Notes under the pieces: model-generated
Told to the model about the DNA's origin: nothing
The model's input: only the letters and a program-made list of their open reading frames with translations
Database searches by the model: none
Translations under genes and position numbers: made by a program
Part shown: in pieces, positions 8,456-49,965 of the stretch
Numbering within the stretch: position 1 is the first letter of the stretch
Layout: every line of letters starts with the position of its first letter
Origin: Eubacteriales bacterium
GTDB lineage: Bacteria > Bacillota > Clostridia > Oscillospirales > CAG-272
Direction: 5' to 3'
NCBI GenBank assembly: GCA_045661325.1
Contig: JAZRFK010000039.1
Coordinates: forward strand, 4,563-68,562
DNA length: 64,000 nt

Positions 8456-8481
8456 AAAGGTTTCCCCTTTTCTTTCGTAGA

Positions 8482-8925
8482 TTAGTTATGCACAACCAGC
8501 GCGATTTTGCCAACCACACCCTCGTAAAGCTTCACGTTCAAGGAGTAGCTGCCGTAGGATTTGATATTGTCGGACATTTCGATTTTTCTCTTATCCACCG
8601 TTATGCCGAAATCCTTGGCCAAGGCCTCTGCAACGTCCTTGGAGGTTACAGCGCCGTACAGTCTGCCGTCAGCACCCGAGGCAGAGCGAATTTTAACGGT
8701 GATGGTTTCCAAGCGCTCGGCAACGGCCTTTGCGGCCTTGCGCTCCTCCTCAATCTTGAAGCGCTTGGACTCTTCCTTGCCCTTCAAATCGTTGATAGCC
8801 TGATTATCAGCCCGAATGGCAAGCTTGCGCGGCAAAAGGAAGTTGGCGGCATAGCCTTCTGCAACCTCTACCACATCGTCCTTCTTACCCAGGGCCTTTA
8901 CGTTTTGTAACAAAATAACCTTCAT
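8482..8925 (-). CDS. rplI: 50S ribosomal protein L9
   Basis: MKVILLQNVKALGKKDDVVEVAEGYAANFLLPRKLA; start set to ATG 8925. Confidence 0.95.
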   Translation of the reverse strand: MKVILLQNVKALGKKDDVVEVAEGYAANFLLPRKLAIRADNQAINDLKGKEESKRFKIEEERKAAKAVAERLETITVKIRSASGADGRLYGAVTSKDVAEALAKDFGITVDKRKIEMSDNIKSYGSYSLNVKLYEGVVGKIALVVHN

Positions 8926-14572: not shown

Positions 14573-16861
14573 ATGCTACGCCGTCTTCCCCGTTTATACC
14601 CTCTTTGTCTTTCCTTTTGCAAAAAGCACATTCATCTTTTGCTTTCTCTTTTTTGGATAACGGCGATTGCCCTTGCCTACGCGCTTCCCTTTCCTGCGCT
14701 TCGCATATCAGCCGCCGTTTTTCTTGCGCTCTTTGTCCTATGCGGTATAGGCCGCCTTTTCAAGCGCTTTTATACCGTTTTTATTCTCCTTCCGCTTTTG
14801 CTTGGTCTGGCGCTTTCTCTCGTCTGTGTTCATAGACTTCCAAGCGAGACCCTCTCTGCCTACAAGGGAAAGCAGGGCTTTGCGGTTGTGACCTTAACGG
14901 ACATTTTGGAGCAAACGGACTCTCTTCTCACCGCCGAGGCAACGCTTTCCTCCTTGGGAGAAAAAGAGCTTTCCGCAACGGTTTTACTGCGCTTACAAGC
15001 AAGCGAGGACTTCACAGAGGGAGACACGTTGCGCGTTTACGTTTCGGAGCTTTCTTCTGTATCTGACGCCTATGCGGCAGAGGGATATGACGGAAGCATT
15101 TGGGCCGTGCGCGGCACTAAAATCGGAGAAAGGCACACCCTGCGCTCCGTTCTTGCTCACTATAATTCCCTCCTTTCCTCTTCCTTGCAAAAGCGGATAG
15201 ACCAAGAGGAAGGCGCCTTTCTTTCTGCCCTGCTTTTAGGAGATAAAAGCGGGATTTCCGCCTCCCTTTCTCGCGATATGGCCCGAAACGGCACCTCGCA
15301 CATATTGGCGCTCAGCGGCCTGCACGTCAGCCTTTTTATGTCGGGCGTTACGTTTCTTCTGCGCCCTCTTCACAAGAAGGCGCGCACCGTTCTTTCGCTT
15401 TTGCTGATAGCAGCCTACGTGCTTTTAACGGGCGCCTCGCCCTCTGCCTTGCGAGCGGGCTTTATGTGCTTTTGTGCGCTTCTTTCCTTTCTTGTTGGCC
15501 GTCGGCATAACAGTCTTTTTTCTCTTTTTGCCTCGGTCTCTCTAATTTTCGCTTTTGAGCCCTATTGCGTTTACGGCCTATCGCTTTGGCTTTCGGCCTT
15601 GGCGACCCTTGGTATTCTTCTTTATTTTGAGCGCAAGAAGGAAAAGACGCATAAGGAAGTAACGGCACCAAAGCGCCTTTGGCGCAGAGCGCTTTCCTTT
15701 TTGAAGGAGTATATCATTCTTTCCGCCGTTATCACGGCGGCGGCCTCCCTGATGGTGCTCCCCCTTTCAGCGCGCATCTTCGGCACGCTTTCGCTGTTAT
15801 CCATTCCTGCCAATCTCTTGCTTGCGCCCTTGTCTAATTTGCTTTTATACGGCGCGTTTCTTGTGCTTCCCTTGGGCTTTTTCAAGCCGCTTTCCTTTTT
15901 ACTGGAAAAGGCGACCTCCCTCTTTCTGTTCCTTTCTGCGCGTCTTGCCGATATTCCGCATACGCAGATTTCCTTTTCCAATTTTATTTCGCTCCTTGCC
16001 GCCACTCTTATTCCCTTGGCGATTCTCCTTTACTGCGTTTTCGTGCCAAGGAAGCGCTTTCGCAGAAAGACGGTGCTTTCCCTTTGTCTTGCCCTTTGCG
16101 TCACGCTTTCGGCCGTTCACGTTGGCGATTTTCTATTGCACAAAAACGGTGTCAGGCTTGATTTTGCCGCGAACACCTCTGCCGCGTATGATGCCGTTTG
16201 TCTGCGCGAAAGCACCAAAACCTTTTTAATTGACGGCAGCACCTTTACCGCACAAAGCGCCAAACACGCGCTTTCGCTTGCCAAGGCGTGTGCCAGACAG
16301 GAAATTGACGCATACGTTATCACCTGCTATGACGACAGCACCGCCTCCCTCCTTCGTTCTTTATCGGAAGAAAACACGATTCGAGAGGTCTATTTGCCCG
16401 CACCGATAACGACCGAGGAGAAGCTTTCGGCACGCGCGCTTTTGGAGGACATCACGCTTGACGGCACCAAAGCCACCTTTTACCGCGAGGGAGAGGAAAT
16501 TGCGCTTGGCCGAACCACCTTTTCGCTGCTCTTCCGCATCCCCCAGGCAGAAGCCGCCACCGCTGCCGCTTACACCCTGGAAATAGGAAAAAGCAAGGTT
16601 TTGTGCGCCTCTGCCGCCTCCTTGGCATCGGGCGCGGCTTATCAGCGCCTGATTTACCATCTTGCCGACTGCGACACGCTGCTTTTGGGCAGTTACGGGA
16701 AAGAGGATGCCGTTTTGCCGCTTCCCTCCTCGGCCTTTGAAAAGGATGTTTTGTGCGCGGCAGACGCCGCTTTGGGCAAAAACACGGCGCTTTCTGTAAC
16801 CGAGCGAGGAAAAAGGCGATTCTTTGCGCCCATTATGCAAGGCCCACTCTTTTCTCCGTGA
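14573..16861 (+). CDS. comEC: ComEC/Rec2-family DNA internalisation channel protein
   Basis: Polytopic membrane core with HILALSGLHVS motif; C-terminal beta-lactamase-like region appears to lack the His-rich metal motif. Confidence 0.8.
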   Translation: MLRRLPRLYPLCLSFCKKHIHLLLSLFWITAIALAYALPFPALRISAAVFLALFVLCGIGRLFKRFYTVFILLPLLLGLALSLVCVHRLPSETLSAYKGKQGFAVVTLTDILEQTDSLLTAEATLSSLGEKELSATVLLRLQASEDFTEGDTLRVYVSELSSVSDAYAAEGYDGSIWAVRGTKIGERHTLRSVLAHYNSLLSSSLQKRIDQEEGAFLSALLLGDKSGISASLSRDMARNGTSHILALSGLHVSLFMSGVTFLLRPLHKKARTVLSLLLIAAYVLLTGASPSALRAGFMCFCALLSFLVGRRHNSLFSLFASVSLIFAFEPYCVYGLSLWLSALATLGILLYFERKKEKTHKEVTAPKRLWRRALSFLKEYIILSAVITAAASLMVLPLSARIFGTLSLLSIPANLLLAPLSNLLLYGAFLVLPLGFFKPLSFLLEKATSLFLFLSARLADIPHTQISFSNFISLLAATLIPLAILLYCVFVPRKRFRRKTVLSLCLALCVTLSAVHVGDFLLHKNGVRLDFAANTSAAYDAVCLRESTKTFLIDGSTFTAQSAKHALSLAKACARQEIDAYVITCYDDSTASLLRSLSEENTIREVYLPAPITTEEKLSARALLEDITLDGTKATFYREGEEIALGRTTFSLLFRIPQAEAATAAAYTLEIGKSKVLCASAASLASGAAYQRLIYHLADCDTLLLGSYGKEDAVLPLPSSAFEKDVLCAADAALGKNTALSVTERGKRRFFAPIMQGPLFSP

Positions 16862-16884
16862 CAATCCCGTGCGATGAAAAACAA

Positions 16885-16926
16885 AAATCCGTTTTGCACC
16901 TTTGGTACAAAACGGATTTTTTATTT
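16885..16926. terminator. Bidirectional terminator between comEC and ilvE
   Basis: AAATCCGTTTTG / CAAAACGGATTT hairpin flanked by an A-run and a T-run. Confidence 0.8.
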
Positions 16927-16954
16927 TGGCAAGCGGGCTTGCCGATTTTTTGTT

Positions 16955-18022
16955 TTAGTCCTCTAACTGATAGGTCCAGCCATAGCTGTCGGGAAGAGTT
17001 CCCCACTGGATACCCGTCAAGGAATTATAGAGATGGGCGGTTACCTCACCGATTTCGCCATTGTTGATGGAATACTTCTTGCCCATATAGCAAAGTTCGC
17101 CAATGGGAGAGATAACAGCGGCAGTACCGCAGCCCCAAGCCTCCTCAAGCTTGCCCTCCTCCAAAGCCTTTGCCAGCTCGTCAATGCTCAAGCGGCGCTC
17201 GCTGACGCGATAGCCCTCGGCGCGCAAAAGCTCCAAGCAGGATTTTCTGGTGATACCGGGAAGAATAGATCCGAGAAGCGAAGGGGTAACAACCTCGCCG
17301 TCAATCTTGAACATAACGTTCATAGCGCCGACCTCTTCGATGTACTTGCGCTCAACACCGTCAAGCCAAAGAACCTGCGACTAGCCTGCCTTTCCGGCCT
17401 TCTCACCTGCACGGTTGGAAGCGGCATAGTTACCGCCGCACTTGGCCTCACCGGTACCGCCACGAACGGCACGAACGTCATCTGCCTCGATCATAATCTT
17501 AACGGGGTTAATGCCCTCCTTGTAGTAGCTGCCTACGGGGGAGGTAATGATAACGAAGGTTGCGTGCTTTACCGCGTGCACACCCAAGGTTTCATCGTTT
17601 CCGCACATAAAGGGTCGGATATAAAGGGAGGTGCCGGGGGCAGGGGGCGTCCAATCCTGCTCAAAGGCAATAAACTTGGTTAAAACCTCCATTGCCAAAT
17701 CCTCGGGAATGGTGGGCAGGCAAAGTCTGTCTGCCGAGCGATTCATACGGCGAATGTTCTCGATGGGACGGAACATCTGCACCTTTCCGTCGGCACGGCG
17801 ATAGGCCTTTAAGCCCTCGAAGATTTCGCTTCCGTAATGAAGCGCGGTGCAAGCGGGATGGATAGCCAAGGGGCCAAAGGGAACGATTCTTGCGTCATGC
17901 CAGCCCTCCTCGACAGAATAGTCCATCATAAACATATGGTCGGTAAAATACTTGCCGAAGCCGAGAACAGAAGGCTCGGGCTTTACCGCGGGATTCGGGT
18001 TTCTCGTAATTTTGATTTCCAT
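16955..18022 (-). pseudogene. ilvE: Branched-chain amino acid aminotransferase interrupted by one in-frame TAG (17381-17383)
   Basis: Track ORFs 17381..18154 and 16955..17323 are in the same frame. Translation reads ...GNYAASNRAGEKAGKAG[TAG][28 protein letters not shown]..., colinear with IlvE. ATG 18022 with AAGGAG RBS. Confidence 0.75.
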
Positions 18023-18038
18023 AGCTTTCTTCTCCTTA

Positions 18039-18581
18039 TTAGCCCTGATAGTCCTTGCCAAGACGCATAGCGCCGAGGTTGACATCCAGCATATCCGCAC
18101 GCTTGGCGGAGATAACCTTTTTAAGTGCAGCCAGAACCTTCTCTTCATCCTCAAAGGCGCCGCTTTCTGCCAAAACCTTACCCATGATAATCATATTGGC
18201 GAGAGTGGGCGTTTTGTTGTCGGATGCCATCTGGGTGGCAGGGATATAATGCACCGTCACATCGGTACGGTTAACCTTGCGGGAAATGAGGGTGGAATCC
18301 ACGTAAATGGTGCCGCCGGGAGCAACGCTGGACTCATACTTGTCCAAGGAGGGCAGGTTCATCGCAATCAGAACGTCGGGATTCGATACGATGGGAGAGC
18401 CAACGGGAATATCGCTGATGATAACGCTACAGCTTGCCGTACCACCGCGCATTTCGGGACCGTAGGAGGGCAACCAGCTGACGTTTTTGCCGTCATTGAG
18501 GCCCTGGTAAGCTAAGAACTTGCCTGCGAACAGGATGCCCTGTCCACCGAAGCCTGCAAACAAATACTGGGTCGTTTTCAT
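18039..18581 (-). CDS. 2-oxoacid:ferredoxin oxidoreductase gamma subunit
   Basis: [14 protein letters not shown] and [11 protein letters not shown] motifs; ATG 18581 with AAGGAGG RBS. Confidence 0.85.
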
Positions 18582-18594
18582 TTCTGCTTCCTCC

Positions 18595-19338
18595 TTACTT
18601 TCCTGCGCTTCTATCCTTATACACCCCAAGAGGATAATAAGGAATCATTTTTTCATCAATACAAGCCAAAGCCTTTGCAGGCGTCATACCCCAGTTGGTC
18701 GGGCAAGAGGAAACAACCTCTACCAAGGAGAAGCCTTTTCCGTTGACCTGGTTTTCAAAGGCCTTTTTGATAGCCTTCTTGGCATTCTTGACGTTCTTGA
18801 CGTTGTTAACGGCAACACGCTCCAAATACTCGGGGCCGTCCAGCTGAGAAAGCATTTCGCAAACCTTGATGGGATAGCCGCAATGAGAAACGTCACGTCC
18901 GTAGGGAGAGGTCTGGGTGACCTGACCGGGCAAGGAGGTGGGAGCCATCTGACCGCCCGTCATACCGTAAATGGCGTTGTTGATGAAGATAACGGTGATG
19001 TTTTCGTTTCTGGCGGCGCTATGTACCGTTTCTGCCATACCGATGGAGGCAAGGTCGCCGTCACCCTGATAGGTGAATACGATGTTATTGGGGTCGGAGC
19101 GCTTAACGCCCGTTGCAACGGCAGGTGCTCTACCGTGAGCGGCCTCAATCATATCACAGTTAAAGTAGTCGTATGCCATAACCGAGCATCCAACGGGGGC
19201 AATACCAATGGTTCTTCCCTCAATACCAAGCTCGTCCATTACCTCGGCAACCAGACGATGCACGATGCCGTGGGTACAACCGGGGCAATAGTGTAAGGGT
19301 GCATCGGAAAGCGCATGGGGTTTATCAAATACTACCAT
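18595..19338 (-). CDS. 2-oxoacid:ferredoxin oxidoreductase beta (TPP-binding) subunit
   Basis: HYCPGCTHG Cys motif, GDGD TPP-binding region; ATG 19338 with AAGGAGG RBS, 1 nt after the alpha stop. Confidence 0.88.
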
Positions 19339-19339
19339 T

Positions 19340-20401
19340 TCAGTTACCTCCTTTATCGGCGGCCTCAATAGCGGCCAGCACCTCTTCGGGCGAAGGAATC
19401 ATACCGCCCGCTCTGTTGCAAAGAGTGACGGGGGCCTTGCCGTTGACGGCCAGGCGAACGTCCTCAATCATCTGACCCATAGAAAGCTCAACGGACACGA
19501 AGGCTTTAACCTTTTCGGCCGCTGCGGCAAACTGCTTCTTGGGGAAGGGCCAAAGCGTGATGGGACGAATCATACCCACCTTAATGCCCTTGGCTCTTGC
19601 CTCGTTGATGGCGTTCTTGGAAACACGGGCGGCGATACCAAAGGCGGCCACGCAGATTTCCGCATCCTCCATCATATATTCCTCGTAGAGAACCTCGTTC
19701 TCCTCGATGTACGCATACTTCTCGTAGCGCTCAAAGTTGGTTTTTTCCAGCTCTTCGGGCTTCAAGAACAGAGAGTTGACGATGTTATGGGGTCTTTCAA
19801 GCTTGGTACCCGTCACAGCCCAAGGCTTTGCGGGAGCCTCCTCAATATCAAAGGAGAGAGAAACGGGCTCCATCATCTGACCCATCGTGCCGTCTGCCAG
19901 AATCATAGAGGTCATACGGTACTTGTCTGCCAGGGCAAAGCCCTTCACCGTCAGCTCTGCCATTTCCTGCACGGAGGCAGGCGCCAGAACCAACATATGA
20001 AAGTCGCCGTGTGCGCCACCCTTGGTTGCCTGGAAATAGTCGCTCTGAGAGGGCTGAATACCGCCAAGTCCGGGGCCGCCGCGCTGAACGTTTACGATGA
20101 GAGCGGGAAGATCCGCGCCTGCCAGATAGGAGATGCCCTCGCCCTTCAAGGAAATTCCGGGGCTGGAGGAGGAGGTCATCACGCGCTTGCCCGTTGCGGA
20201 AACGCCGTACACCATATTGATGGCGGCGATTTCACTTTCGGCCTGCAAGAAGGTGCCGCCGATTTTGGGCATTCTTTTTGCCATATAAGCAGCAATTTCG
20301 GTTTGGGGGGTAATGGGATAGCCAAAGTAATGACGGCAGCCTGCGATGATGGCCGCCTCGGCAATGGCTTCGTTGCCTTTCATTAATACCTTATCAGACA
20401 T
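19340..20401 (-). CDS. 2-oxoacid:ferredoxin oxidoreductase alpha subunit (KorA/VorB type)
   Basis: [31 protein letters not shown]-terminus typical of OFOR alpha subunits. Confidence 0.88.
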
Positions 20402-20408
20402 TGCTTTT

Positions 20409-20615
20409 TCACCTTTCTACCTTAATGATACAGTCGGGACACATCGTGGCGCAGAAGGCGCAGCCGATGCACGCTTCCTCGTTCACAGCCTTAACGGGAT
20501 GGTGACCCTTTTGGTTAATGGTTTCGGCATCAAGCGCCAGAACCTGCTTGGGACAAGCATCAACACAAAGGCCACAGCCCTTGCATTTTTCAAATTTAAA
20601 GGTTAATTTTGCCAT
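20409..20615 (-). CDS. OFOR delta subunit, 2x[4Fe-4S] ferredoxin
   Basis: CKGCGLCVDACP and CIGCAFCATMCP motifs in 68 aa; AAGGAG RBS. Confidence 0.85.
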   Translation of the reverse strand: MAKLTFKFEKCKGCGLCVDACPKQVLALDAETINQKGHHPVKAVNEEACIGCAFCATMCPDCIIKVER

Positions 20616-20626
20616 GGTATTCTCCT

Positions 20627-21286
20627 TTACATTCGTTTTTGTAATAATATAGGACGGTAGCTATCGCTCTCGGCCGAAAAATACTGCCAAAGCGACTCGT
20701 GCACCGTGGTATACAAAAATGGAATTTGGGCGGCGGCGGCAACCTCCTTGGCGAAGGCAACCGATCCGCGCACATCCTCTTCGGTGGTTTCCGCACCGAG
20801 ATTGGAATTGTTAATCAGGGCGGTAAAGCGAAGGCCGGAGGCCGCCTCAATCTCGTTCATAACGGTCAAAGCACCGTCAAGATCACGCGTCAAGGGACGA
20901 TAGCCGTTCAAGACGAATATCATCTGGTAATCGTTCTCCTCCTTGATGGCAGGAACGAGTCTACCAAGTGCCAAAGCCCCTCTTTCGTCACCTCCCACAT
21001 CCAGCACGGCGCGAAACGATTTATCGTCTGTCACGGCGTAAATTTCAGCGGGAAGCGCGGGAATGTCAACGTTACTGTTGGCATACGCCGAGCAGATAAG
21101 GCGAACGTCTCGCTCCTTCAAGAGCGCTTCACTGTCCTTCGTGCGAAAATAGGGATTGACAATATCGATATCGGCGATAATCACCTTTTCGTGCGTCTTT
21201 CGCAGAGAGAGCGCGTAATTCACTGCGATGTTGGTTTTTCCGCTACCGTAGTGACCCGAAAAAATCGTTATTCGTTTTTCCTGCAT
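20627..21286 (-). CDS. P-loop NTPase (MinD/ParA/CooC-like), function unknown
   Basis: Walker A FSGHYGSGKTNIAVN close to the N-terminus; GGAAGGAG RBS; sits between acyl-CoA synthetase and OFOR genes. Confidence 0.55.
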   Translation of the reverse strand: MQEKRITIFSGHYGSGKTNIAVNYALSLRKTHEKVIIADIDIVNPYFRTKDSEALLKERDVRLICSAYANSNVDIPALPAEIYAVTDDKSFRAVLDVGGDERGALALGRLVPAIKEENDYQMIFVLNGYRPLTRDLDGALTVMNEIEAASGLRFTALINNSNLGAETTEEDVRGSVAFAKEVAAAAQIPFLYTTVHESLWQYFSAESDSYRPILLQKRM

Positions 21287-21325
21287 AGCTCTCTCCTTCC
21301 CTGCGTTTTTCGCATGATGCTCGCA

Positions 21326-23611
21326 TTATAAAAGATTTCTTTGGATTTTTCCCGTGGCCGTCTTGGGAAGCGCATCACGGAAAACAATAATTCTGGGGTA
21401 TTTATAGGGCGCAGTATGCGTCTTGACGTAATCCTGAATTTCCTTGACAAGCTCGGGCGAGGGCTCTGTTCCCTTCACCAGAACGATGCTGGCCTTGACA
21501 ACCTGGCCTCTGACCTCGTCAGGTGCGGCAGAGACGCCGCATTCCAGAACGTACGGCAGCTCCATAATGACGCTTTCAATCTCGAAGGGCCCGATGCGGT
21601 AACCGGAGGACTTGATAACGTCATCCACGCGGCCAACGTACCAATAGAAGCCGTCCTCATCGCGCCAAGCCACGTCACCCGTATGGTAATAGCCGTCGTG
21701 CTTAACCTCGCGCGTCTTTTCCTCATCGTGATAATACTCGTCAAAGAGACCGCAGGGAGAACCGTTTTCAATCTTGATAACGATTTCGCCCGATTCACCG
21801 ACAGGAACACGACTGCCGTCTGCGGCAAGCAAATCCACGTCATAAATGGGAGCAGGCTTACCCATCGAACCGATTTTATGAGGCGCACCGCGCATATTTC
21901 CGATTATCATCGTGCTTTCGGACTGGCCGAAGCCCTCCAAAATCTGAATGCCCGTTGCCTCCTCGAATTGACGGTAGACCTCGGGGTTTAAGGCCTCGCC
22001 CGCCGTTGTCATATGCTTGACGGAGGAGAGATCGTACTTGGAGATATCCTCCTTGACCATCATACGAAGCATGGTCGGAGGCGCGCAGAAGGTGGTGATT
22101 TGATATTTGGCAAACATAGGCAGAATATCGTCTGCGTGGAAGCGCTCGAAATCGTAAACGAAGGTTGCCGCCTCGCAGAGCCATTGGCCGTAAAGCTTGC
22201 CCCAGAGTGCCTTGGCCCAACCTGTATCCGAAATGGTAAAGTGCAAGCCGTCCGAATCGACGTTATGCCAATACTTTGCGGTATGGAAATGGCCCAAGGG
22301 ATATTTGTGATTATGTACGGCGATTTTGGGATAGCCCGTGGTACCCGAGGTAAAGAACATCAAAAGCGTGTCATTACCGCAGGGGGTATCGGCGGTGCGC
22401 TCAAAATGGGTACTGTAAAGGACGCATTCCTCGTCAAAGCTGCGCCAGCCGTCCTTTTCGCCGCCAACCATAATTTTAATGAGCTTTTTGTCTAACTGCG
22501 CCTCGGCCTTGTCGACCTCCGTGCTGACGCCGCCTCTTCCCGTACAGAGAATGGCCGAAACGCCTGCCGCCTTGAAGCGATATTCAAAATCGTGGTCAAG
22601 CAGCTGATTCATAGCGGGAATGGCGATAGCGCCCAAGCGGTGCAGACCCAGCATTGCGTACCAGAACTGATAGTGTCTGCCCAGAACCAGCATTACGCGG
22701 TCGCCCTTTTTGATACCGAGCGACTTGAAATAGTTGGCCGCACGGCAGGAATTTTTCTTGATGTCGGAAAAAGAGAGTCTGGTTTCCGTTTTATCGTTCG
22801 CCACGTGCAAAAGCGCAAGCTTGCCCGGCTCCTTTTCCGCGATTTTATCCACCACGTCGTAGGCGAAGTTAAAGGTATTCTCGTTTTTGAAGGTGATGGA
22901 GGTGGGGGTGCCGTTTTCGTCCTCCTCGGTATCCACAAATGCGGAGTATACTCTTTCCTTTTCGTCACGCTTGGCCGGACGGCTTTGCACCGCACGAGAG
23001 GGCTGAAGCTCGGGAATGGGCTCGCCCGTGGGATTCAATACAATAGCGTAGAAGCGACAGTCCTCTCCCTCAACGGCTATCATACCGTGGGGCGTGGAGC
23101 TATCGTAATAAATGCTGTCACCGGGGCCAAGAATCTCCACGTGAGAGCCGATTTGCACCTTCAAGTGACCGCTCAACACAATGTCGCACTCCTGACCGTC
23201 GTGCGTGGTTAATTCTATGTCTCTTACCTGCGCCTTTTCGCTATAACGGCTGCACACGTAAAGAGGCTCGGCAATACGGTTTCGGAAAGCAGAGGCCAGG
23301 TTGAAATAGGTCATTCCGTGCGCCTCTTCAATGCGCTGTCCCTGTCCGCTTCTCGTTAAGGTATAAGATTTCAGAGTCGGGCTTTTACCCTCGATAATAT
23401 CCGTTACATCCACGTTGAAGGCGGAGGCACAACGGTAGATAAAGGCAAAGTTCAAGTCCGATTCGCCGTTCTCACAGGCAAGATATTCTGCCTCGGCTAC
23501 GCCCGTTTTGGCGGCCATTTCCGCCACCGTCAAGCCCTCGATTTCGCGAAGCTCACGGATACGGCTTGCCATTTCCTTTATTTTCAAATCAAGTCCCGTA
23601 ATTCCTTGCAT
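21326..23611 (-). CDS. HTH(XRE)-cupin domain fused to an AMP-forming acyl-CoA synthetase (paralog 1)
   Basis: N-terminal HTH (LTVAEMAAKTGVAEAEY), cupin (GDSIYYDSSTPHGM), then adenylation core FFTSGTTGYPK, YHTGD, SSGYRIGPFEIES, PKTATGKIQR. Start set to ATG 23611 (GGAGG RBS), because the longer ORF overlaps the leader terminator. Confidence 0.85.
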   Translation of the reverse strand: MQGITGLDLKIKEMASRIRELREIEGLTVAEMAAKTGVAEAEYLACENGESDLNFAFIYRCASAFNVDVTDIIEGKSPTLKSYTLTRSGQGQRIEEAHGMTYFNLASAFRNRIAEPLYVCSRYSEKAQVRDIELTTHDGQECDIVLSGHLKVQIGSHVEILGPGDSIYYDSSTPHGMIAVEGEDCRFYAIVLNPTGEPIPELQPSRAVQSRPAKRDEKERVYSAFVDTEEDENGTPTSITFKNENTFNFAYDVVDKIAEKEPGKLALLHVANDKTETRLSFSDIKKNSCRAANYFKSLGIKKGDRVMLVLGRHYQFWYAMLGLHRLGAIAIPAMNQLLDHDFEYRFKAAGVSAILCTGRGGVSTEVDKAEAQLDKKLIKIMVGGEKDGWRSFDEECVLYSTHFERTADTPCGNDTLLMFFTSGTTGYPKIAVHNHKYPLGHFHTAKYWHNVDSDGLHFTISDTGWAKALWGKLYGQWLCEAATFVYDFERFHADDILPMFAKYQITTFCAPPTMLRMMVKEDISKYDLSSVKHMTTAGEALNPEVYRQFEEATGIQILEGFGQSESTMIIGNMRGAPHKIGSMGKPAPIYDVDLLAADGSRVPVGESGEIVIKIENGSPCGLFDEYYHDEEKTREVKHDGYYHTGDVAWRDEDGFYWYVGRVDDVIKSSGYRIGPFEIESVIMELPYVLECGVSAAPDEVRGQVVKASIVLVKGTEPSPELVKEIQDYVKTHTAPYKYPRIIVFRDALPKTATGKIQRNLL

Positions 23612-23635
23612 ACTTCCTCCAAGATTGTTATGGCG

Positions 23636-23901
23636 ACAAAAAAAGCCCGCCACAAAGATAAATACTTTGAGACGAGCTTGCTAATCAAAACCCGCGGTAC
23701 CACTCAAATTGCGGCAGATGCCGCCCCTCAGGGTCAATCAACCCGTATGCACTAACGCAGCAAACGCGGAGAGGTTCTACTCGATTCTCTTTCTTCCTCT
23801 CGGCTCGGAAGCTACAAACAGGAGGCAGCATTTAGCGACTCACACCAACCGTCGCTTCTCTGAAAAAGCCGCGTTCCTACACTCTTCGTCAACGCCTTTA
23901 T
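23636..23901 (-). promoter_or_regulatory. T-box leader, specifier read as GUA (Val)
   Basis: Minus strand: stem I base GGC-GTTGA-C-GAAG ... CTTC-C-GA-GCC (GA/K-turn), AGAGA bulge, distal loop GGTTGGTG. T-box AATTTGAGTGGTACCGCGGG (23710-23691). Terminator AGCTCGTCTCAAAG / CTTTGTGGCGGGCT + T7. Specifier GTA (23815-23813) followed by purine G directly before the CTTC helix. Confidence 0.8.
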
Positions 23902-23907
23902 AGAGTC

Positions 23908-23936
23908 ATATTACCACACTTTAAAGTATTTGTCAA
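23908..23936 (-). promoter_or_regulatory. Promoter of T-box(Val) leader
   Basis: TTGACA (23936-23931), 17 nt, TAATAT (23913-23908); spacer contains palindrome ACTTTAAAGT (23918-23927). Confidence 0.7.
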
Positions 23937-23981
23937 CTGTTTTTTTAAAATATTATTTAATTATAGAAGCATCAAGGAAGC

Positions 23982-26249
23982 TTAGAGCTTGTTTCTCTGA
24001 ATCTTGCCGCTGATGGTTTTGGGAAGCTCCGTGCGGAATTCCACAATACGCGGATACTTATAGGGCGCGGTATGCTCCTTGACGTAATTCTGGATTTCCT
24101 TTTTCAATGCCTCTGTTGGCTCGGTTCCCTTCACCAAGACGATGCTGGCCTTGACAACCTGGCCTCTGACCTCGTCGGGTGCGGCAGAGACGCCGCATTC
24201 CAGAACGTACGGCAGCTCCATAATGACGCTTTCAATTTCAAAGGGCCCGATGCGGTAGCCGGAGGATTTGATAACGTCATCCACGCGGCCAACGTACCAA
24301 TAATATCCGTCCTCGTCACGCCAAGCGGTGTCACCCGTATGGTACAAGCCATCGTGCCAGGCATCCGCCGTTTTTGCGTCATCACGGTAATATTCTCTGA
24401 AAAGACCGCAGGGAATGCCCTTATCCGTATGGATAACGATTTCACCGATTTCACCCGCAGGAAGCGATTTTCCATCGGCATCGACAACATCTACGTCATA
24501 TTGGGGATTTGCCTTACCCATAGCGCCGATTTTGGGAGTTGTGCCGTAAAGATTTGCAATAGCAAGGGTGGTTTCCGTTTGACCGAAGCCCTCCATAATT
24601 TCAAGACCCGTTGCCGTTTTGAACTGGTTGAACACCTCGGGGTTCAACGCCTCGCCTGCGGTGGTCATATGATGAATGGAGGACAAATCAAATTTGGAAA
24701 GATCGCCGCGAATAAGCATTCTGAGCATCGTGGGCGGTGCACAGAAGGTGGTGATATTGTACTCTGCAAACATAGGAAGCAGATCGTTTTCATCAAACCT
24801 ATCGAAGTCATAGACGAAAACGGCGCCCTCGCAGAGCCACTGACCGTACAGCTTACCCCACAGGGATTTGCCCCAGCCCGTATCGGAAATGGTTAAATGC
24901 AAGCCGTCACGCTCGCAGCAATGCCAATATTTAGCCGTTACGTAATGACCCAAGGCGTAGGTATGCTTATGCGCCGCCATTTTGGGATTGCCCGTGGTAC
25001 CCGAGGTGAAGAACATCAGCGCAAGGTCATCTCCTGCGGAGCAGTCCTCGGGGCGCTCGTACTTGCTGGAAAACAGCTTATACTCCTTATCAAAGTCAAG
25101 CCAGCCGTCCTTGACGCCGCCAACCATCAAAAGCTTTTCCACCTGAGGACATTTCTTGGCGGCACTTTGTGCATAGGTATAGGTATCTCCGTCAGCGGTG
25201 CATACGATGGCCTTGACCCCTGCGGAATTGTATCTGTACTCAAAATCGTGTTCCTTTAACTGATTCGTTGCGGGAATGGCAATCGCGCCCAGCTTATGAA
25301 GAGCCACCATACAGAACCAGAACTGATAATGACGCTTTAAGACCAACATAACCTTATCGCCCCGCTTGATGCCCAAGGAGGTGAAATAGTTTGCCACCTG
25401 GTTAGATGCCTTCTTGATGTCCTTAAAGGTAAAGCGTCGCTCGTTCTTGTTTCTGTCAAGGTGAAGCATGGCGAGCTTCTCGGGATAGCTATCGGCAATG
25501 CCGTCAACGATGTCGAAGCCGAAGTTAAAGCTTTCGGTGTTTTTGAAGCGAATGCTTTGCAGCTGTCCGTTTGCATTTTCCTTAACGTCAAGGAATTTTT
25601 CGCAAACCAGTGCCTCGCTCTTTTTAGCGGCAATAACGCTTTTTCTGACAACCGTTTCATTGGAATTGTCGCCCGACATAACCACCGCAACGAAGGTACA
25701 GTCCTTGCCGTCAACGGCAATCATTCCGTGCGGAATAGAGGAATTGTAGTAGATGCTATCGCCCTCCTCCAAGACCTCGGTATGCTCGCCGACTTGAATT
25801 TTCAGCTTGCCGTTTAAAACAAGGTCAAACTCCTGACCGCTGTGCGTGGTCAGATGAATGGGCTTATTTTGCTGCGATTGAGAATATTCGTAGGTTACGT
25901 AGTAGGGCTCTGCGAGCTTATCCTTGAACTTGGGCGCCAGGTTGGCAATATCAATGCCGTCCTCCTTGGCAGTTCCCTGTCCCTTGCCCTTTCTCGTCAC
26001 CGTATAGGTAGAAAGCTTTGCCGTGCTACCCTCCAGAAGCTCCGTCATTTCAACGCCGAAGGCCAGCGCACATTTATGGATAAAGGAGAACGGAATATCC
26101 ACCGTACCGCTTTCATAAGAAAGATAGGTAGACTCGTCCACATCGGTTTTTTGCATCATATCGTTTACGGAGAAGCCCATAATTTCGCGCAGCTCTTTGA
26201 TTCGAGTTGCGATTTCCGATAACTGACTTAAAGTGTTGTTTGTATTCAT
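23982..26249 (-). CDS. HTH(XRE)-cupin domain fused to an AMP-forming acyl-CoA synthetase (paralog 2)
   Basis: Same architecture as paralog 1: HTH, cupin (GDSIYYNSSIPHGM), FFTSGTTGNPK, YHTGD, PKTISGKIQR; ATG 26249 nine nt after AAGGAGG. Confidence 0.85.
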   Translation of the reverse strand: MNTNNTLSQLSEIATRIKELREIMGFSVNDMMQKTDVDESTYLSYESGTVDIPFSFIHKCALAFGVEMTELLEGSTAKLSTYTVTRKGKGQGTAKEDGIDIANLAPKFKDKLAEPYYVTYEYSQSQQNKPIHLTTHSGQEFDLVLNGKLKIQVGEHTEVLEEGDSIYYNSSIPHGMIAVDGKDCTFVAVVMSGDNSNETVVRKSVIAAKKSEALVCEKFLDVKENANGQLQSIRFKNTESFNFGFDIVDGIADSYPEKLAMLHLDRNKNERRFTFKDIKKASNQVANYFTSLGIKRGDKVMLVLKRHYQFWFCMVALHKLGAIAIPATNQLKEHDFEYRYNSAGVKAIVCTADGDTYTYAQSAAKKCPQVEKLLMVGGVKDGWLDFDKEYKLFSSKYERPEDCSAGDDLALMFFTSGTTGNPKMAAHKHTYALGHYVTAKYWHCCERDGLHLTISDTGWGKSLWGKLYGQWLCEGAVFVYDFDRFDENDLLPMFAEYNITTFCAPPTMLRMLIRGDLSKFDLSSIHHMTTAGEALNPEVFNQFKTATGLEIMEGFGQTETTLAIANLYGTTPKIGAMGKANPQYDVDVVDADGKSLPAGEIGEIVIHTDKGIPCGLFREYYRDDAKTADAWHDGLYHTGDTAWRDEDGYYWYVGRVDDVIKSSGYRIGPFEIESVIMELPYVLECGVSAAPDEVRGQVVKASIVLVKGTEPTEALKKEIQNYVKEHTAPYKYPRIVEFRTELPKTISGKIQRNKL

Positions 26250-26274
26250 AACGAACACCCTCCTTAAAAATTTT

Positions 26275-26537
26275 AAAAAAACAAAACCCGCCCCAAAGAA
26301 AAATCTTTGAGGCGGGTGAAAACACTCGCGGTACCACTCAAATTGCGCCGAAACGCCACTTTACGAAGTCCAACAACTTCTGCACACTAACGCTGTGCTC
26401 CTCGTGAAGCCCTACTGCTTTCAGGCTCCAGGCTCGGAAGTGATAGGGTTTTCTCTCTGCGCTACGGCTCGCACCAACCGCCGTTTCTCTTGGCCGCTAT
26501 CCGAGAAGCCCGTCTTCGTCATTGCCTTTTTCAATTT
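26275..26537 (-). promoter_or_regulatory. T-box leader, specifier read as AUC (Ile)
   Basis: Minus strand: GGC-AATGA-C-GAAG ... CTTC-C-GA-GCC, AGAGA bulge, GGTTGGTG distal loop. T-box AATTTGAGTGGTACCGCGAG (26344-26325). Terminator ACCCGCCTCAAAGA / TCTTTGGGGCGGGT + T-run. Specifier ATC (26444-26442) followed by A before the CTTC helix. Confidence 0.8.
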
Positions 26538-26543
26538 GGTAAG

Positions 26544-26572
26544 ATTGTATCACACTTAAACGGGTTTGTCAA
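26544..26572 (-). promoter_or_regulatory. Promoter of T-box(Ile) leader
   Basis: TTGACA (26572-26567), 17 nt, TACAAT (26549-26544). Confidence 0.7.
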
Positions 26573-26858: not shown

Positions 26859-26886
26859 TTGACAAAACGCACGCAGATGGTATAAT
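26859..26886 (+). promoter_or_regulatory. Promoter of the 701-aa gene
   Basis: TTGACA (26859-26864), 16 nt, TGgTATAAT extended -10 (TATAAT 26881-26886). Confidence 0.7.
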
Positions 26887-26943: not shown

Positions 26944-29049
26944 ATGAGAACCGAGCAGAATTACGATTTTCAGCGTGAGCTTTTGACGGTGCATGAGCCT
27001 CACTTGCAAGACGAAAGCCGCACAAAGAGGGCAGACGAGCTTTGGCTCTCTGACGGTGCGCGCATTCGCATTGATGCAAATGCCTCTGAGGTAATAGCTG
27101 TTGCCGCCGCCGATTTTTGTGATTATCTCTCCGTTTCGATGGGTGTCAAGGCATCCGTTGTGACCGAGGGTGAGGGCGACGTGACCGTTCGTCTCGCCGC
27201 CGACGTGGGCGTGGATCTCGGCGAGTTTGCCGCTTACAAGGGCTTCCGTATCGAGACCGACAAGGACGGCATCGTCATCACCGCGCACGATGACAGAGGT
27301 GCGGGACAGGCACTCTTCTATATTGAAGACCTTATGACCTTTGAGGGCGCGCCCTGTCTTGCCTACGGCAAGATCGAAAAGCGTGCCATGTACACTCCGC
27401 AGATGGTACATTCAGCGTACGATATTGACGAATTTCCCGATGAGTACATCGCGCGCATTGCTCACGAGGGACGAGATGCACTTCTCATCTTTACCAAGGG
27501 CGTTGGCATCTCCGCGCGCGGTGAGGAGGACTTTAACGATCTCATCCGCCGCGCCGCACGTTACGGTGTTGATGTGTATGCATACAGCAAGATCAAGAGT
27601 GAAAAGCACCCCGACGATCCCGATGCGGAAGAATACTACGACAGCACCTACGGTGAGCTGTTCCGCCGCTTCCCTGGACTTCGCGGCGTGACGCTGGTTG
27701 GCGAGTCCATTGGATTTCCCTCCAAGGACACTCGTTCCGGTCCGTGGCACAACCCCGACGGTATCCCTTCCGGAAAGACGCATCCCGGATTTTTCCCCTG
27801 CTACGATTATCCCGAATGGATGAATATGCTCAAAAACGCCATCCGCCGTGTTAAGCCGGACGCTGACATTGTTCTTTGGACATATAACTTTGGCTGGTGC
27901 TCGAAAGAAGAGCGTGTCAAGCTTATTGAGTCACTCCCCACCGACATCTCCCTCAACGTCACCTTTGAGATGTACGAGTTTAAGCCGTGCGGTAATTCGC
28001 TCATCAAGTGCTGTGACTATACCCTTGCCTTTGAGGGCCCCGGTTCTTATTTTGCGAGCGAGGCAGAGGTGGCAAAGCGCCGTGGCATCCGCCTCTATTC
28101 TATGACCAACACGGGCGGCAGAACCTGGGACTTTGGCGTTGCTACCTATGAGCCGATGCCTTATCAGTGGATGCGCCGTTACGCCGCCATGAGCCGTGCA
28201 CAGAAGGATTGGGGACTTTCCGGTATTATGGAAAGCCACCACTTCGGCTTCTATCCCTCCATCATTACCAAGCTTTCCAAGCACGCCTTTATGCTCCCCG
28301 AGGAGAATTATGAGGAGCTTCTTGATAAGATCTTAAAGGCTGAATACGGAAAAGAGAACCTTGAAAGCGCCAAGGCAGCGCTTGCCGATTTCAGCGAGGC
28401 TATCCGCTACTATACCCCCACCGAGTCGGATCAGTACGGTGCGCTCCGTGTCGGTCCTGCACATCCCTTCAATCTGGCGCAGACCATCAAGATCCCCTCT
28501 GATCCCAACTCGATGTTTGCTGACCGCATCTGGAAGCCCAAGTACCTGACCACCATTGTCGGACACTGGCTCACATCCGTCTCTCCTCAGGCGATCCGTG
28601 TTCGTGAGGAGGCAAAGTCGATGCAGACCATGCTTTCCCTGATGGAGTCGGGTATTGCCAAGCTGGCCGCCGCTCCTGTGCAAAATGCAAAGCTCGTCCG
28701 CCTTGCAGGGCTTGGACAGTTTATCGCCAACTCCGTCAAGACGGGTATCGCCGCAAAATATTTCCACCTGCTCGATGCAGAGTTGAAGGTTGCTACTGAT
28801 ATTGACAGACAGAAAGCTATCTGCGACGAGATGGAGGCCATCCTTCTTGCAGAGCGTCAAAATGCTCTCGATACCATTCCGCTCGTTGAAGCGGACTCTT
28901 CGCTCGGCTACGAGCCCTCCATGCACTATATGTGCGACAAGGAACACCTTGAATGGAAAATTCGCCATACCGACTACGTTCTCGGCATCGAGATTCCCGA
29001 GCTTCGCGCTTCCATCAAGACCCATGAGGAATTTTTGAAAAAGCAATAA
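26944..29049 (+). CDS. Hypothetical 701-aa protein, putative glycoside-hydrolase-like (GH20b-like N-terminal domain)
   Basis: Long clean ORF with AAGGAG RBS; N-terminal segment VRLAADVGVDLGEFAAYKGFRIETDKDGIVITAHDDRGAGQALFYIEDL resembles the accessory domain of hexosaminidase-type enzymes; catalytic family not recognised. Confidence 0.45.
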   Translation: MRTEQNYDFQRELLTVHEPHLQDESRTKRADELWLSDGARIRIDANASEVIAVAAADFCDYLSVSMGVKASVVTEGEGDVTVRLAADVGVDLGEFAAYKGFRIETDKDGIVITAHDDRGAGQALFYIEDLMTFEGAPCLAYGKIEKRAMYTPQMVHSAYDIDEFPDEYIARIAHEGRDALLIFTKGVGISARGEEDFNDLIRRAARYGVDVYAYSKIKSEKHPDDPDAEEYYDSTYGELFRRFPGLRGVTLVGESIGFPSKDTRSGPWHNPDGIPSGKTHPGFFPCYDYPEWMNMLKNAIRRVKPDADIVLWTYNFGWCSKEERVKLIESLPTDISLNVTFEMYEFKPCGNSLIKCCDYTLAFEGPGSYFASEAEVAKRRGIRLYSMTNTGGRTWDFGVATYEPMPYQWMRRYAAMSRAQKDWGLSGIMESHHFGFYPSIITKLSKHAFMLPEENYEELLDKILKAEYGKENLESAKAALADFSEAIRYYTPTESDQYGALRVGPAHPFNLAQTIKIPSDPNSMFADRIWKPKYLTTIVGHWLTSVSPQAIRVREEAKSMQTMLSLMESGIAKLAAAPVQNAKLVRLAGLGQFIANSVKTGIAAKYFHLLDAELKVATDIDRQKAICDEMEAILLAERQNALDTIPLVEADSSLGYEPSMHYMCDKEHLEWKIRHTDYVLGIEIPELRASIKTHEEFLKKQ

Positions 29050-43386: not shown

Positions 43387-45021
43387 ATGACTATCGTTGA
43401 TTTACTGACCCAAAACGCCATTCAATACCCGAGTGAAACGGCGCTTGTGGAGCTGAACCCGCAGTTTGAGCCCGGAAGCCGCATCACCTGGAAGGAATAT
43501 TCTTTGACGCAGCCGACGGTTGGCGAGCCCTTCCGCAGAGAAATCACTTGGCTTGATTTTGAGCAGCGCGCCAATCGCTTTGCCAATCTGCTTTTAACCC
43601 GAGGCTGCCGCCGCGGCGACAAGATTGCCATTCTCTTGATGAACTCGATTGAGTGGCTTCCCATTTATTTCGGTATTTTGAAGGCGGGCGCCATCGCCGT
43701 TCCGCTTAACTATCGCTATACCGCCGATGAAATTAAATTCTGCTTGACCAAGGCAGACTGCTCTATGCTGGTTTTCGGCCCTGAATTTATCGGGCGCTTG
43801 GAGGACATTTGCAGCGAGCTTCCCGCTGTCAAGCATATGTTTTACGTTGGCGAGGACTGCCCCTCCTTTGCAGACAGCTACGAGGATATGATTCCCTACT
43901 GCTCCTCCCGCGCACCGCACATTACTCTTTCGGAGGAGGATTACGCTGCCATTTACTTCTCCTCGGGCACCACGGGCTTTCCCAAGGCTATTTTGCACGC
44001 GCACCGCAGCCTGATTCACGCGGCACGCACCGAGCAGAACCATCACGCGCAAACGCACGAGGACGTTTTTCTTTGCATTCCGCCCCTGTATCACACGGGC
44101 GCCAAGATGCATTGGTTCGGCTCCTTGATGGTGGGCGGCAAGGCCGTTCTGCTCAAGGGCGCGCGCCCCGATTGGATTGTTCGCGCGGCCTCCGATGAGC
44201 ACTCCTCCATCGTCTGGCTTTTGGTGCCGTGGGCACAGGATATTCTGGACGCCATTGACAGAGGCGAGATTCGCCTTTCCGACTACGAGCTTGACGCCTG
44301 GCGCTTGATGCACATCGGCGCGCAACCCGTTCCTCCCTCCTTGATTAACCGCTGGTTAAAGATTTTCCCCCACCACAAGTACGACACCAACTACGGTCTT
44401 TCCGAGTCCATCGGCCCCGGATGCGTTCATCTGGGTATGGACAACGTGCATAAGGTTGGCGCCATCGGTAAGGCAGGCTACGGCTGGACGGTTTGTATTG
44501 CAGACGAAAACGGCCACCCCACCAAGCGCGGCGAGGTTGGCGAGCTTTGCGTCAAGGGCCCCGGTGTAATGCTTTGCTACTACAAGGACGAGAAGGCGAC
44601 CGACGAGGTTTTGAAGGGCGACTGGCTCTTTACGGGTGATATGGCAATGGAGGACGAGGACGGCTTTATCTACCTCGTTGACCGCAAAAAAGACGTTATC
44701 ATCACGGGCGGAGAAAACCTCTATCCCGTACAGATTGAGGACTTTATCCGCGCACACGACGCCGTCAAGGACGTTGCCGTTATCGGTCTTCCCGACGCGC
44801 GCTTGGGCGAGATTGCCGCCGCGATTATTGAGGTGAAGCCCGACAAGACGCTGACCGAGGAGGAGGTTAACGCCTTCTGCTCGCGCCTTCCCCGCTACAA
44901 GCGTCCGCGCGCTGTGATTTTCGCGGATATTCCGCGCAATCCCACGGGAAAAATCGAAAAGCCCAGGCTTCGCGAAATGTATTGCGCGGGCGGTCTGGTT
45001 GCCACGCAAATCAAGAACTGA
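43387..45021 (+). CDS. AMP-forming acyl-CoA ligase (class I adenylate-forming enzyme), substrate unknown
   Basis: YFSSGTTGFPK, TGDMAMEDEDGFIYLVDRKKD, ITGGENLYP, PRNPTGKIEK motifs. Confidence 0.8.
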   Translation: MTIVDLLTQNAIQYPSETALVELNPQFEPGSRITWKEYSLTQPTVGEPFRREITWLDFEQRANRFANLLLTRGCRRGDKIAILLMNSIEWLPIYFGILKAGAIAVPLNYRYTADEIKFCLTKADCSMLVFGPEFIGRLEDICSELPAVKHMFYVGEDCPSFADSYEDMIPYCSSRAPHITLSEEDYAAIYFSSGTTGFPKAILHAHRSLIHAARTEQNHHAQTHEDVFLCIPPLYHTGAKMHWFGSLMVGGKAVLLKGARPDWIVRAASDEHSSIVWLLVPWAQDILDAIDRGEIRLSDYELDAWRLMHIGAQPVPPSLINRWLKIFPHHKYDTNYGLSESIGPGCVHLGMDNVHKVGAIGKAGYGWTVCIADENGHPTKRGEVGELCVKGPGVMLCYYKDEKATDEVLKGDWLFTGDMAMEDEDGFIYLVDRKKDVIITGGENLYPVQIEDFIRAHDAVKDVAVIGLPDARLGEIAAAIIEVKPDKTLTEEEVNAFCSRLPRYKRPRAVIFADIPRNPTGKIEKPRLREMYCAGGLVATQIKN

Positions 45022-45103
45022 TTTGCCGTTTTTCCCTCTGTTTCACATCTGACTGCAAGCAATTTTCTGCTTCTGCATCCCTCTTTGAAAGGAATTCTTA
45101 CAT

Positions 45104-46849: not shown

Positions 46850-46864
46850 GAAAGGATTTCTGCT

Positions 46865-47428: not shown

Positions 47429-47467
47429 GGCGCGCCCGAAAGACACTCCTGTAAAAAGGTGATACAT

Positions 47468-48157: not shown

Positions 48158-48159
48158 AA

Positions 48160-49464: not shown

Positions 49465-49491
49465 TTTGGCTTTTACGAAGGGAGATACAGT

Positions 49492-49923: not shown

Positions 49924-49965
49924 TTGAGAAAAAGGGGATTTTCCCTTTCAGAAAAGGAACAGCAT

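Follow-up and report, generated by a model that had tools for sequence, protein, structure and literature searches.

The 64,000-nt stretch of DNA analysed here (the window; contig JAZRFK010000039.1 of assembly GCA_045661325.1, Eubacteriales bacterium) carries, wholly on the minus strand from 26572 to 16883, an operon with two acyl-coenzyme A (CoA) ligase genes, two T-box leaders, a P-loop NTPase gene, the genes of a 2-oxoacid:ferredoxin oxidoreductase (OFOR) and the branched-chain aminotransferase gene ilvE. We will argue that this two-promoter, two-T-box operon very probably serves a salvage route in which isobutyrate and 2-methylbutyrate from outside the cell are reductively carboxylated to give valine and isoleucine. 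In window coordinates and in the order of transcription its features are as follows.

26544..26572, minus strand: promoter of the Ile unit, TTGACA, 17 nt, TG-n-TACAAT (11 of 12 matches, TG extension)
26305..26531, minus strand: T-box leader, specifier AUC (Ile) then A (RF00230, 80.6 bits)
26286..26317, minus strand: terminator of the Ile T-box leader, 14-bp stem and U-run
23982..26249, minus strand: ligase 2, 755 aa, HTH_XRE, Cupin_2 and AMP-forming acyl-CoA synthetase (Pfam)
23908..23936, minus strand: promoter of the Val unit, TTGACA, 17 nt, TG-n-TAATAT (10 of 12 matches, TG extension)
23665..23901, minus strand: T-box leader, specifier GUA (Val) then G (RF00230, 98.5 bits)
23643..23679, minus strand: terminator of the Val T-box leader, hairpin AGCUCGUCUCAAAG...CUUUGUGGCGGGCU, then U-run
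21326..23611, minus strand: ligase 1, 761 aa, HTH_XRE, Cupin_2 and AMP-forming acyl-CoA synthetase (Pfam)
20627..21286, minus strand: P-loop NTPase, 219 aa, Walker A GHYGSGKT
20409..20615, minus strand: OFOR delta, 68 aa, two CxxCxxCxxxCP motifs
19340..20401, minus strand: OFOR alpha, 353 aa, VorB subfamily
18595..19338, minus strand: OFOR beta, 247 aa, thiamine pyrophosphate (TPP)-binding
18039..18581, minus strand: OFOR gamma, 180 aa (Pfam and NCBIfam domain matches)
16955..18022, minus strand: ilvE, 355 codons, class IV branched-chain aminotransferase, in-frame TAG at 17381-17383
16883..16921, minus strand: operon terminator, 18-bp stem and U-run

From ligase 1 onwards the genes are closely spaced: 39 nt to the P-loop gene, 11 to delta, 7 to alpha, 1 to beta, 13 to gamma and 16 to ilvE. 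Gene order and gaps had been given in an initial annotation made from the letters alone, and the open reading frames (ORFs) match it exactly; the terminator that it placed at 16885-16926 corresponds to the sole strong downstream terminator, 18 pairs at 16921-16883. Its domain assignments also hold in Pfam and NCBIfam, apart from three that needed correction (ilvE, the ligases and the P-loop protein; see below). The Val promoter and the Val leader sit between ligase 2 and ligase 1, and no terminator was found between ligase 2 and this promoter and leader.

T-boxes switch genes on when the cognate tRNA is uncharged. An isoleucine T-box had been proposed before ligase 2 and a valine T-box before ligase 1; the covariance matches and the specifiers, AUC and GUA, agree with both proposals. 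The Val leader (98.5 bits) is above the RF00230 gathering score of 93 in Rfam; the Ile leader (80.6 bits, E = 1.8e-16) is below it, yet covers the full model (positions 1-219). With our Stem I covariance model (R1), built from 19 leaders, the Ile leader scored 80.9 bits and the Val leader 84.2 bits. In the model alignments both leaders show a Stem I with kink-turn, specifier loop and distal AGAGA/GGUGNRA motifs. The 3′ side of the specifier loop is GUUUGUAG-CUUC in the Val leader and ...CCCUAUCA-CUUC in the Ile leader, and the specifiers are therefore GUA and AUC, each followed by the conserved purine (GUA-G, AUC-A). The T-box sequence with its UGGN bulge, AAUUUGAGUGGUACCGCG, is present in both. 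CUCAAAG serves twice, as 5′ arm of the leader terminators (26317-26286 and 23679-23643) and as 3′ arm of the antiterminator; for the Ile leader terminator, an 83-nt stretch has a minimum free energy of −31.9 kcal/mol (z = −3.8). Both promoters are near-consensus, sigma-70 type, with an extended −10. We characterize the two leaders as predicted autonomous transcription-attenuation units, with mutually exclusive antiterminator and terminator. No tRNA-Val or tRNA-Ile gene was found within the 64-kb window.

To see how far this arrangement extends, species-level genomes (one per species) were searched with ligase 1; more than 592 relatives were found, and the best 80 of them, 74-81% identical to ligase 1, were used. 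All 80 are metagenome-assembled genomes from gut or rumen, labelled Acutalibacteraceae, Oscillospiraceae, Eubacteriales or Clostridia, their sources being cattle, goat, sheep, deer, buffalo and human gut metagenomes; closer relatives, 95-96% identical, were found as well, whereas a look-up for an exact copy of the window's alpha subunit gave none. We mapped the window's proteins onto the loci of the relatives, taken with 10-kb flanks (individual loci are given below by L numbers). The order ligase 1-P-loop-delta-alpha-beta-gamma-ilvE was present in 46 of the 52 loci long enough to show it, with one further locus having ilvE ahead of the P-loop gene, and ligase 2 was directly upstream of ligase 1 in 59 of 66 loci. 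A variant with ilvE between ligase 1 and the P-loop gene, not after gamma, was seen in L012, L014, L022 and L070; the IlvE of this variant is more divergent (46-57% identity).

In the related loci the Stem I model found 174 T-boxes, 150 of which were aligned. Leaders preceding ligase-1 orthologues carried GUA (Val) without exception (75/75), and those preceding ligase-2 orthologues carried AUC (Ile), again without exception (50/50); a third leader class, CUC (Leu), stands before a separate ligase-containing unit in many relatives. That a single register yields Val, Ile and Leu only argues that the register is right. Compensatory changes were observed at 13 of the 14 pairs of Stem I among the 150 leaders, in an alignment that was fitted to the model and leans towards the structure. 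Promoters equivalent to those of the window stand immediately before Stem I in the leaders listed for the relatives, in Ile and Val units alike. Since the arrangement recurs with matched specifiers in ∼80 other species-level genomes, it is far beyond chance.

The unit with the Leu T-box is not in the window; it was seen in L001 (16778-21798), in L081/L082 (∼16700-21771) and in many other relatives, where it follows ilvE or stands upstream of ligase 2 in divergent orientation. It has three genes: one encodes a LeuA-like protein that is divergent (278 bits, cut-off 532), another an acyl-CoA ligase fused to a xylose-isomerase-like TIM barrel (839 aa in all), and the third an Amidohydro_2 protein. 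The unit may represent a leucine-linked branch of the same theme.

Considering the ligases, we saw that both are fusions of HTH_XRE, Cupin_2, AMP-binding and AMP-binding_C domains (Pfam). The initial annotation had recognized them as AMP-forming ligases, correctly as far as the AMP-binding and AMP-binding_C domains go; they are not plain ligases, however, and the N-terminal helix-turn-helix (HTH)-cupin module had been missed. HTH_3/HTH_19 is followed by Cupin_2, the order expected of XRE-HTH plus cupin transcription regulators, and in the PDB the HTH_3-family regulator 1y9q was matched weakly. In a search of a library of 1.84 billion cluster representatives the full-length fusion architecture was present in ∼3 clusters among the 150 best matches listed; unfused relatives were found in hundreds.

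The catalytic parts are 52.5% (ligase 1, 599 bits) and 53.9% (ligase 2, 643 bits) identical to PDB entry 3ETC, the Macs of Methanosarcina acetivorans (MacsMa), while the best NCBIfam family for both is MbcS (NF047394; 432 bits for ligase 1, 454 bits for ligase 2). Both ligases thus appear related to MbcS without being its equivalogs, and closer to MacsMa. MacsMa prefers 2-methylbutyrate and is able to adenylate C3-C8 acids (PMC10455477); the MbcS of Staphylococcus aureus selectively activates 2-methylbutyrate and isobutyrate (PMC10026030). Motifs of the ANL superfamily are present: YHTGD in both ligases and the A10 lysine in PKTATGKIQR (ligase 1) and PKTISGKIQR (ligase 2). Both ligases and 3ETC have Gly (GFGQ) where Acs has its acetate-pocket Trp, and they keep the alternate pocket Trp (Trp259 of MacsMa) in GW[A/G]K..W; the function of these Gly and Trp residues is taken from PMC10455477. 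The pocket motif of ligase 2, GWGKSLW, is that of Macs.

Seventeen positions are fixed differently between the two paralogue groups, 12 of them in the HTH-cupin module and 5 in the catalytic part, where they cluster near the pocket Trp and on the strand that follows GFGQ[ST]E[ST]. At GW[A]K, four residues before the pocket Trp, the paralogues are told apart by an Ala that marks ligase 1, whereas ligase 2 shares Gly with Macs. The Ala of ligase 1 would fit a smaller pocket, for isobutyrate, and we would assign ligase 1 as a probable isobutyrate-CoA ligase and ligase 2 as a probable 2-methylbutyrate-CoA ligase. As the HTH-cupin module holds 12 of the 17 paralogue-specific positions, it seems to have specialized along with the catalytic pocket.

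The match to MbcS could also be read in another way. The ligases (with OFOR and IlvE running oxidatively) might supply isobutyryl-CoA and 2-methylbutyryl-CoA as FabH primers for iso and anteiso fatty acids, the T-boxes only sparing scarce amino acids. In ruminococci branched acids end up in lipids and not in amino acids alone, which counts for this explanation, as does the role shown for MbcS, the best NCBIfam match, namely the supply of branched-chain fatty acid primers (PMC10026030). On the other hand, oxidative flux under uncharged tRNA-Val would consume the limiting amino acid, and neither the operon nor its conserved flanks contain fab or pls genes. Separate gating of paralogous ligases by Val and Ile fits amino-acid demand rather than membrane demand; moreover, the co-induction of OFOR and IlvE by uncharged tRNA-Val would be left unexplained, though the acyl-CoA pool may be shared. 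We consider primer supply an improbable purpose of the operon.

The OFOR subunit set is complete, with a TPP-binding beta, a gamma and a delta with two [4Fe-4S] motifs. The alpha subunit passes the NCBIfam VorB model (NF005507) with 541 bits against a cut-off of 399; it is closer to KorA-like models (PRK08659, 318 bits; PRK09627, 244 bits) than to the archaeal VOR alpha. The enzyme is not a member of the characterized Thermococcales VOR clade. In L083, the closest relative with shared flanks, delta (8479-8634) was called with only 51 aa, 17 fewer than the window's 68 aa; either the gene is truncated or assembly or gene calling may account for the difference.

With an alpha subunit nearer to KorA-like models than to archaeal VOR alpha, and with MacsMa adenylating acids from C3 to C8 (PMC10455477), one could suppose that other acids are used: propionate or another short acid would be converted to 2-oxobutyrate (or the product would be pyruvate or 2-oxoglutarate), which would feed the classical ilv pathway. 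The nearest characterized ligases, however, carry the full reaction through most readily when given 2-methylbutyrate or isobutyrate (PMC10455477, PMC10026030), and a Val-specific T-box would have no rationale for propionate or 2-oxobutyrate. Such a route needs the ilv pathway, yet IlvE is the only further enzyme of the operon, and no ilvBNCD genes were found in the window or in the examined flanks of L001 and L081-L083. It is true that anaerobes make isoleucine from propionate through 2-oxobutyrate by reductive carboxylation, which speaks for this possibility; with both sides weighed we regard it as quite improbable.

The reading frame of ilvE is interrupted by the TAG at 17381-17383, which splits it into 213 and 141 codons. 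The initial identification as ilvE stands; the stop codon had been missed. In 52 of 53 related IlvE sequences this position is Tyr, and in the three closest relatives (L081-L083) the codon is TAT and ilvE is intact with 355 codons. One of these three, L083, has the window's ComEC/RarA/RecG flank, and downstream of the stop its ilvE differs from that of the window by 37 synonymous and 8 non-synonymous changes. With TAG read as Tyr, the protein scores at equivalog level (PRK13357, 468 bits against 307; TIGR01123, 394 against 250). Because the relatives have Tyr (TAT) and the downstream differences are still mostly synonymous, the TAG is best explained either by a nonsense mutation of recent date (T to G) or by an error in base calling. 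Recoding of TAG was considered and rejected: TAG makes up 8% of the stops in related loci, L083 uses TAG stops, and no other split gene was seen. Among the 43 gene-like ORFs of the window ilvE is the only one ended by TAG, the other 42 having no TAG stop.

How would these parts work together? Uncharged tRNA-Ile(GAU) would pair with the AUC specifier and with the UGGU bulge, stabilizing the antiterminator and allowing transcription of ligase 2; uncharged tRNA-Val(UAC), at the GUA leader, would allow transcription of ligase 1, the P-loop gene, the delta-alpha-beta-gamma OFOR and IlvE. At the expense of ATP (to AMP and pyrophosphate), ligase 1 would convert isobutyrate, and ligase 2 2-methylbutyrate, to the CoA thioester. 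The VorB-type OFOR would then form 2-oxoisovalerate or 2-oxo-3-methylvalerate from the acyl-CoA, CO2 and reduced ferredoxin, and transamination by IlvE would give valine from the former and isoleucine from the latter. This route from isobutyrate and 2-methylbutyrate had been put forward in the initial annotation, and all its predictions testable at the sequence level came out as expected (specifiers, gene order, the Macs/MbcS affinity of the ligases, VorB). The RNA elements with their specifiers, the domain content and the conservation are seen in the sequences themselves; the substrates, the direction of flux, the assignment of each ligase to its acid and any role of the P-loop protein or the HTH-cupin module are what we infer.

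As to direction, OFORs with a delta ferredoxin subunit are reversible, whereas AMP-forming ligases are effectively irreversible. We favour the biosynthetic direction because the operon would be induced by starvation and because AMP-forming ligases neither conserve energy nor readily reverse. A catabolic operon, taking valine and isoleucine through 2-oxoacid and acyl-CoA to branched acids for energy, would also be in keeping with the reversibility of the IlvE and OFOR reactions, and many amino-acid fermenters do run IlvE and VOR/POR oxidatively. But the AMP-forming ligases would conserve no energy and run towards the thioester, neither a phosphotransacylase/kinase pair nor an ADP-forming synthetase is present, and induction by a T-box under amino-acid scarcity is the opposite of a catabolic signal. 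Catabolism is, in our judgement, extremely improbable.

Several observations weigh against salvage of valine and isoleucine as we propose it. Ligase 2 alone is gated by Ile-tRNA, since the OFOR and ilvE, which both branches share, lie behind the Val terminator; as polymerase coming from the Ile unit meets this terminator, a response to isoleucine alone would need basal read-through or a second source of the enzymes. Synthesis of branched-chain lipids might also take its share of the acyl-CoAs. The equivalog cut-off of MbcS (850) is far above the scores of both ligases, the alpha subunit reaches only 71 bits with the Thermococcales VOR model PRK08366 (cut-off 646), and its ‘VorB’ label stems from a subfamily-level model. 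Finally, the gene of the last step, ilvE, is broken in the genome of the window.

The P-loop protein had been called a P-loop ATPase. A Walker A motif is indeed present, but the ParA and CbiA matches are weak, below both Pfam cut-offs, and no NCBIfam family matches. The Walker A GHYGSGKT and a motif DVGGDERG are invariant across 27 homologues, and for the 120 listed homologues, wherever a source names the protein, the name is ‘hypothetical protein’. A structure model (predicted local distance difference test score 86.7) has SRP54/FtsY, HypB and Mrp/NBP35-like proteins as best folds, with TM-scores of at most 0.58. We would describe it as a likely NTPase of the SIMIBI class and a conserved member of the operon; a role in OFOR maturation is a guess. 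An electron-pumping role like that of NifH was discarded, as the protein has a single Cys and its likeness to SRP, HypB and Mrp folds is only generic.

One could speculate further about the HTH-cupin module. It may sense the branched acid, the acyl-adenylate, the CoA ester or the end-product amino acid, and may either bind DNA, in an autoregulation like that of BirA, or gate the committed step allosterically. Taken jointly, the ligases would be bifunctional enzyme-regulators integrating demand and supply and the P-loop protein a factor of OFOR maturation or activation; we offer this as a tentative proposal, more doubtful than not. If it is true, two signals would meet at each entry point: the T-box would report demand, as uncharged tRNA, and the cupin would report supply or product. 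A search of the promoters for an inverted-repeat operator of the HTH gave no evidence of one: short inverted repeats flank the −35 box in several of them (for the Ile unit, ACACTT...AAGTGT), and these are no commoner than with permuted partners (mean arm of the promoter-spanning inverted repeats 4.34, compared with 4.23 ± 0.07).

Two other features of the window were observed. A second cluster with ligase, OFOR and aminotransferase genes, at 43387-51156 on the plus strand, codes for an AMP-binding ligase (544 aa), IorA (TIGR03336, 706 bits against 651), IorB, a 232-aa protein, a phenylacetate-CoA ligase resembling PaaK (its 540 bits do not reach the cut-off) and a class I/II aminotransferase. 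Rfam leaders, T-boxes included, were not found in this cluster. It may serve reductive carboxylation of arylacetates to aromatic amino acids, or the oxidative reverse. Divergent from the operon is an ORF of 701 aa (26944-29049, plus strand), for which Pfam and NCBIfam gave no match; a promoter-like site of perfect consensus (12/12) lies at 26859-26886.

That anaerobes of rumen and gut need branched-chain volatile fatty acids for growth and use them as precursors of amino acids has been recognized since the 1960s, and dairy cattle are given these acids in their feed. To our knowledge, the bacterial genes of the branched-acid route and their control have so far been largely unassigned. The chemistry, the T-boxes, ligases of the Macs/MbcS type and enzymes of the VOR type are each already known. 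In the literature searched, whose coverage is incomplete, we found no description of the bacterial gene set, of its T-box control or of the HTH-cupin-ligase fusion, which agrees with the initial remark that no gene set with this regulation was known; nor was a T-box linked to an OFOR or to branched acids found there, T-box regulon surveys and the T-box database included. The operon would thus supply all the candidate genes of a rumen pathway that labelling alone had made known, from the 1960s onwards, in at least ∼80 species of a poorly cultured gut family, and would tie this set to a biochemically characterized archaeal ligase and its neighbouring VOR. It suggests a regulatory logic with separate tRNA-Val and tRNA-Ile sensors on entry enzymes of presumed substrate specificity, and would extend the T-box regulon to a ferredoxin-dependent, CO2-fixing salvage route. 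The operon could be used as a marker predicting gut organisms that cross-feed on products of protein fermentation, and the old physiology becomes directly testable by expression, labelling and enzyme assays.

Compared with T-box operons of Firmicutes (e.g. the ilv-leu leader of Bacillus subtilis), the operon has the same leader architecture, with a purine after the specifier codon and a UGGN bulge, the same terminator/antiterminator switch and the same sensing of demand. The usual targets, however, are a de novo pathway, a synthetase or a transporter, whereas here the leaders would control a salvage route of ligase, OFOR and aminotransferase; also, unlike in the usual T-box operons, two leaders of different specificity stand in series in one cluster. 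The MbcS of S. aureus belongs to the best-scoring NCBIfam family of both ligases and supplies FabH in the making of membrane lipids; the paper on it speaks of no T-box, of no regulator module at the N-terminus and of neither OFOR nor IlvE as a partner (PMC10026030). BirA, too, is an adenylate-forming ligase with an N-terminal HTH, a likeness that is resemblance only: the BirA fold is class II synthetase-like, while the ligases of the operon are of the ANL type with a cupin interposed, and no operator was found at the promoters.

Closest in proposed chemistry and in habitat is the labelling work on rumen anaerobes. Allison, Bryant, Robinson and Peel reportedly demonstrated reductive carboxylation of branched-chain volatile fatty acids in the 1960s-70s, with isobutyrate said to be converted to valine and 2-methylbutyrate to isoleucine; the organisms were Ruminococcus, Prevotella/Bacteroides and Megasphaera. 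That work involved neither genes nor regulation, and no Acutalibacteraceae.

A closely related gene arrangement exists in methanogens. When species genomes were searched with the 3ETC sequence, 80 loci were returned, and in 52 of them, all from methanogens (Methanosarcina, Methanothrix, Methanobacterium, Methanolobus and Methanosalsum; among L084-L136, L138, L140 and L146), the Macs orthologue is immediately followed by an OFOR. The unfused bacterial homologues of Macs (Caldicoprobacter, Acetivibrio and others) had no adjacent OFOR. The methanogen OFOR subunits are ∼40-55% identical to those of the window (alpha, 48-55%), and the Methanosarcina alpha beside Macs scores 586 bits on the VorB model; in Methanosarcina sp. 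T3 (L084) the OFOR consists of an 82-aa delta, a 351-aa alpha and a fused beta-gamma. Loci of Methanobacteriaceae have a second, more distant OFOR in tandem. Within 8-kb flanks of the archaeal Macs loci tblastn found no homologue of the window's P-loop protein or IlvE, and no T-box core motif was found near the archaeal ligase. In the papers examined we did not find the adjacency of Macs and OFOR discussed. An anabolic VOR operates in Methanothermobacter, and methanogens are said, from labelling, to assimilate 2-methylbutyrate into isoleucine and isobutyrate into valine.

The methanogen and the window versions share the catalytic part of the ligase (52-54% identity), the pocket Trp and Gly, the VorB subfamily and the order ligase-then-OFOR; they differ in that the methanogens have a single unfused ligase of ∼560 aa, and the window duplicated HTH-cupin fusions, each behind a tRNA sensor. 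A ligase with a VorB-type OFOR thus appears to be a conserved module in methanogens, and the operon of the window looks like this module with the ligase duplicated and fused to an HTH-cupin, and with tRNA sensors, a P-loop protein and IlvE added.

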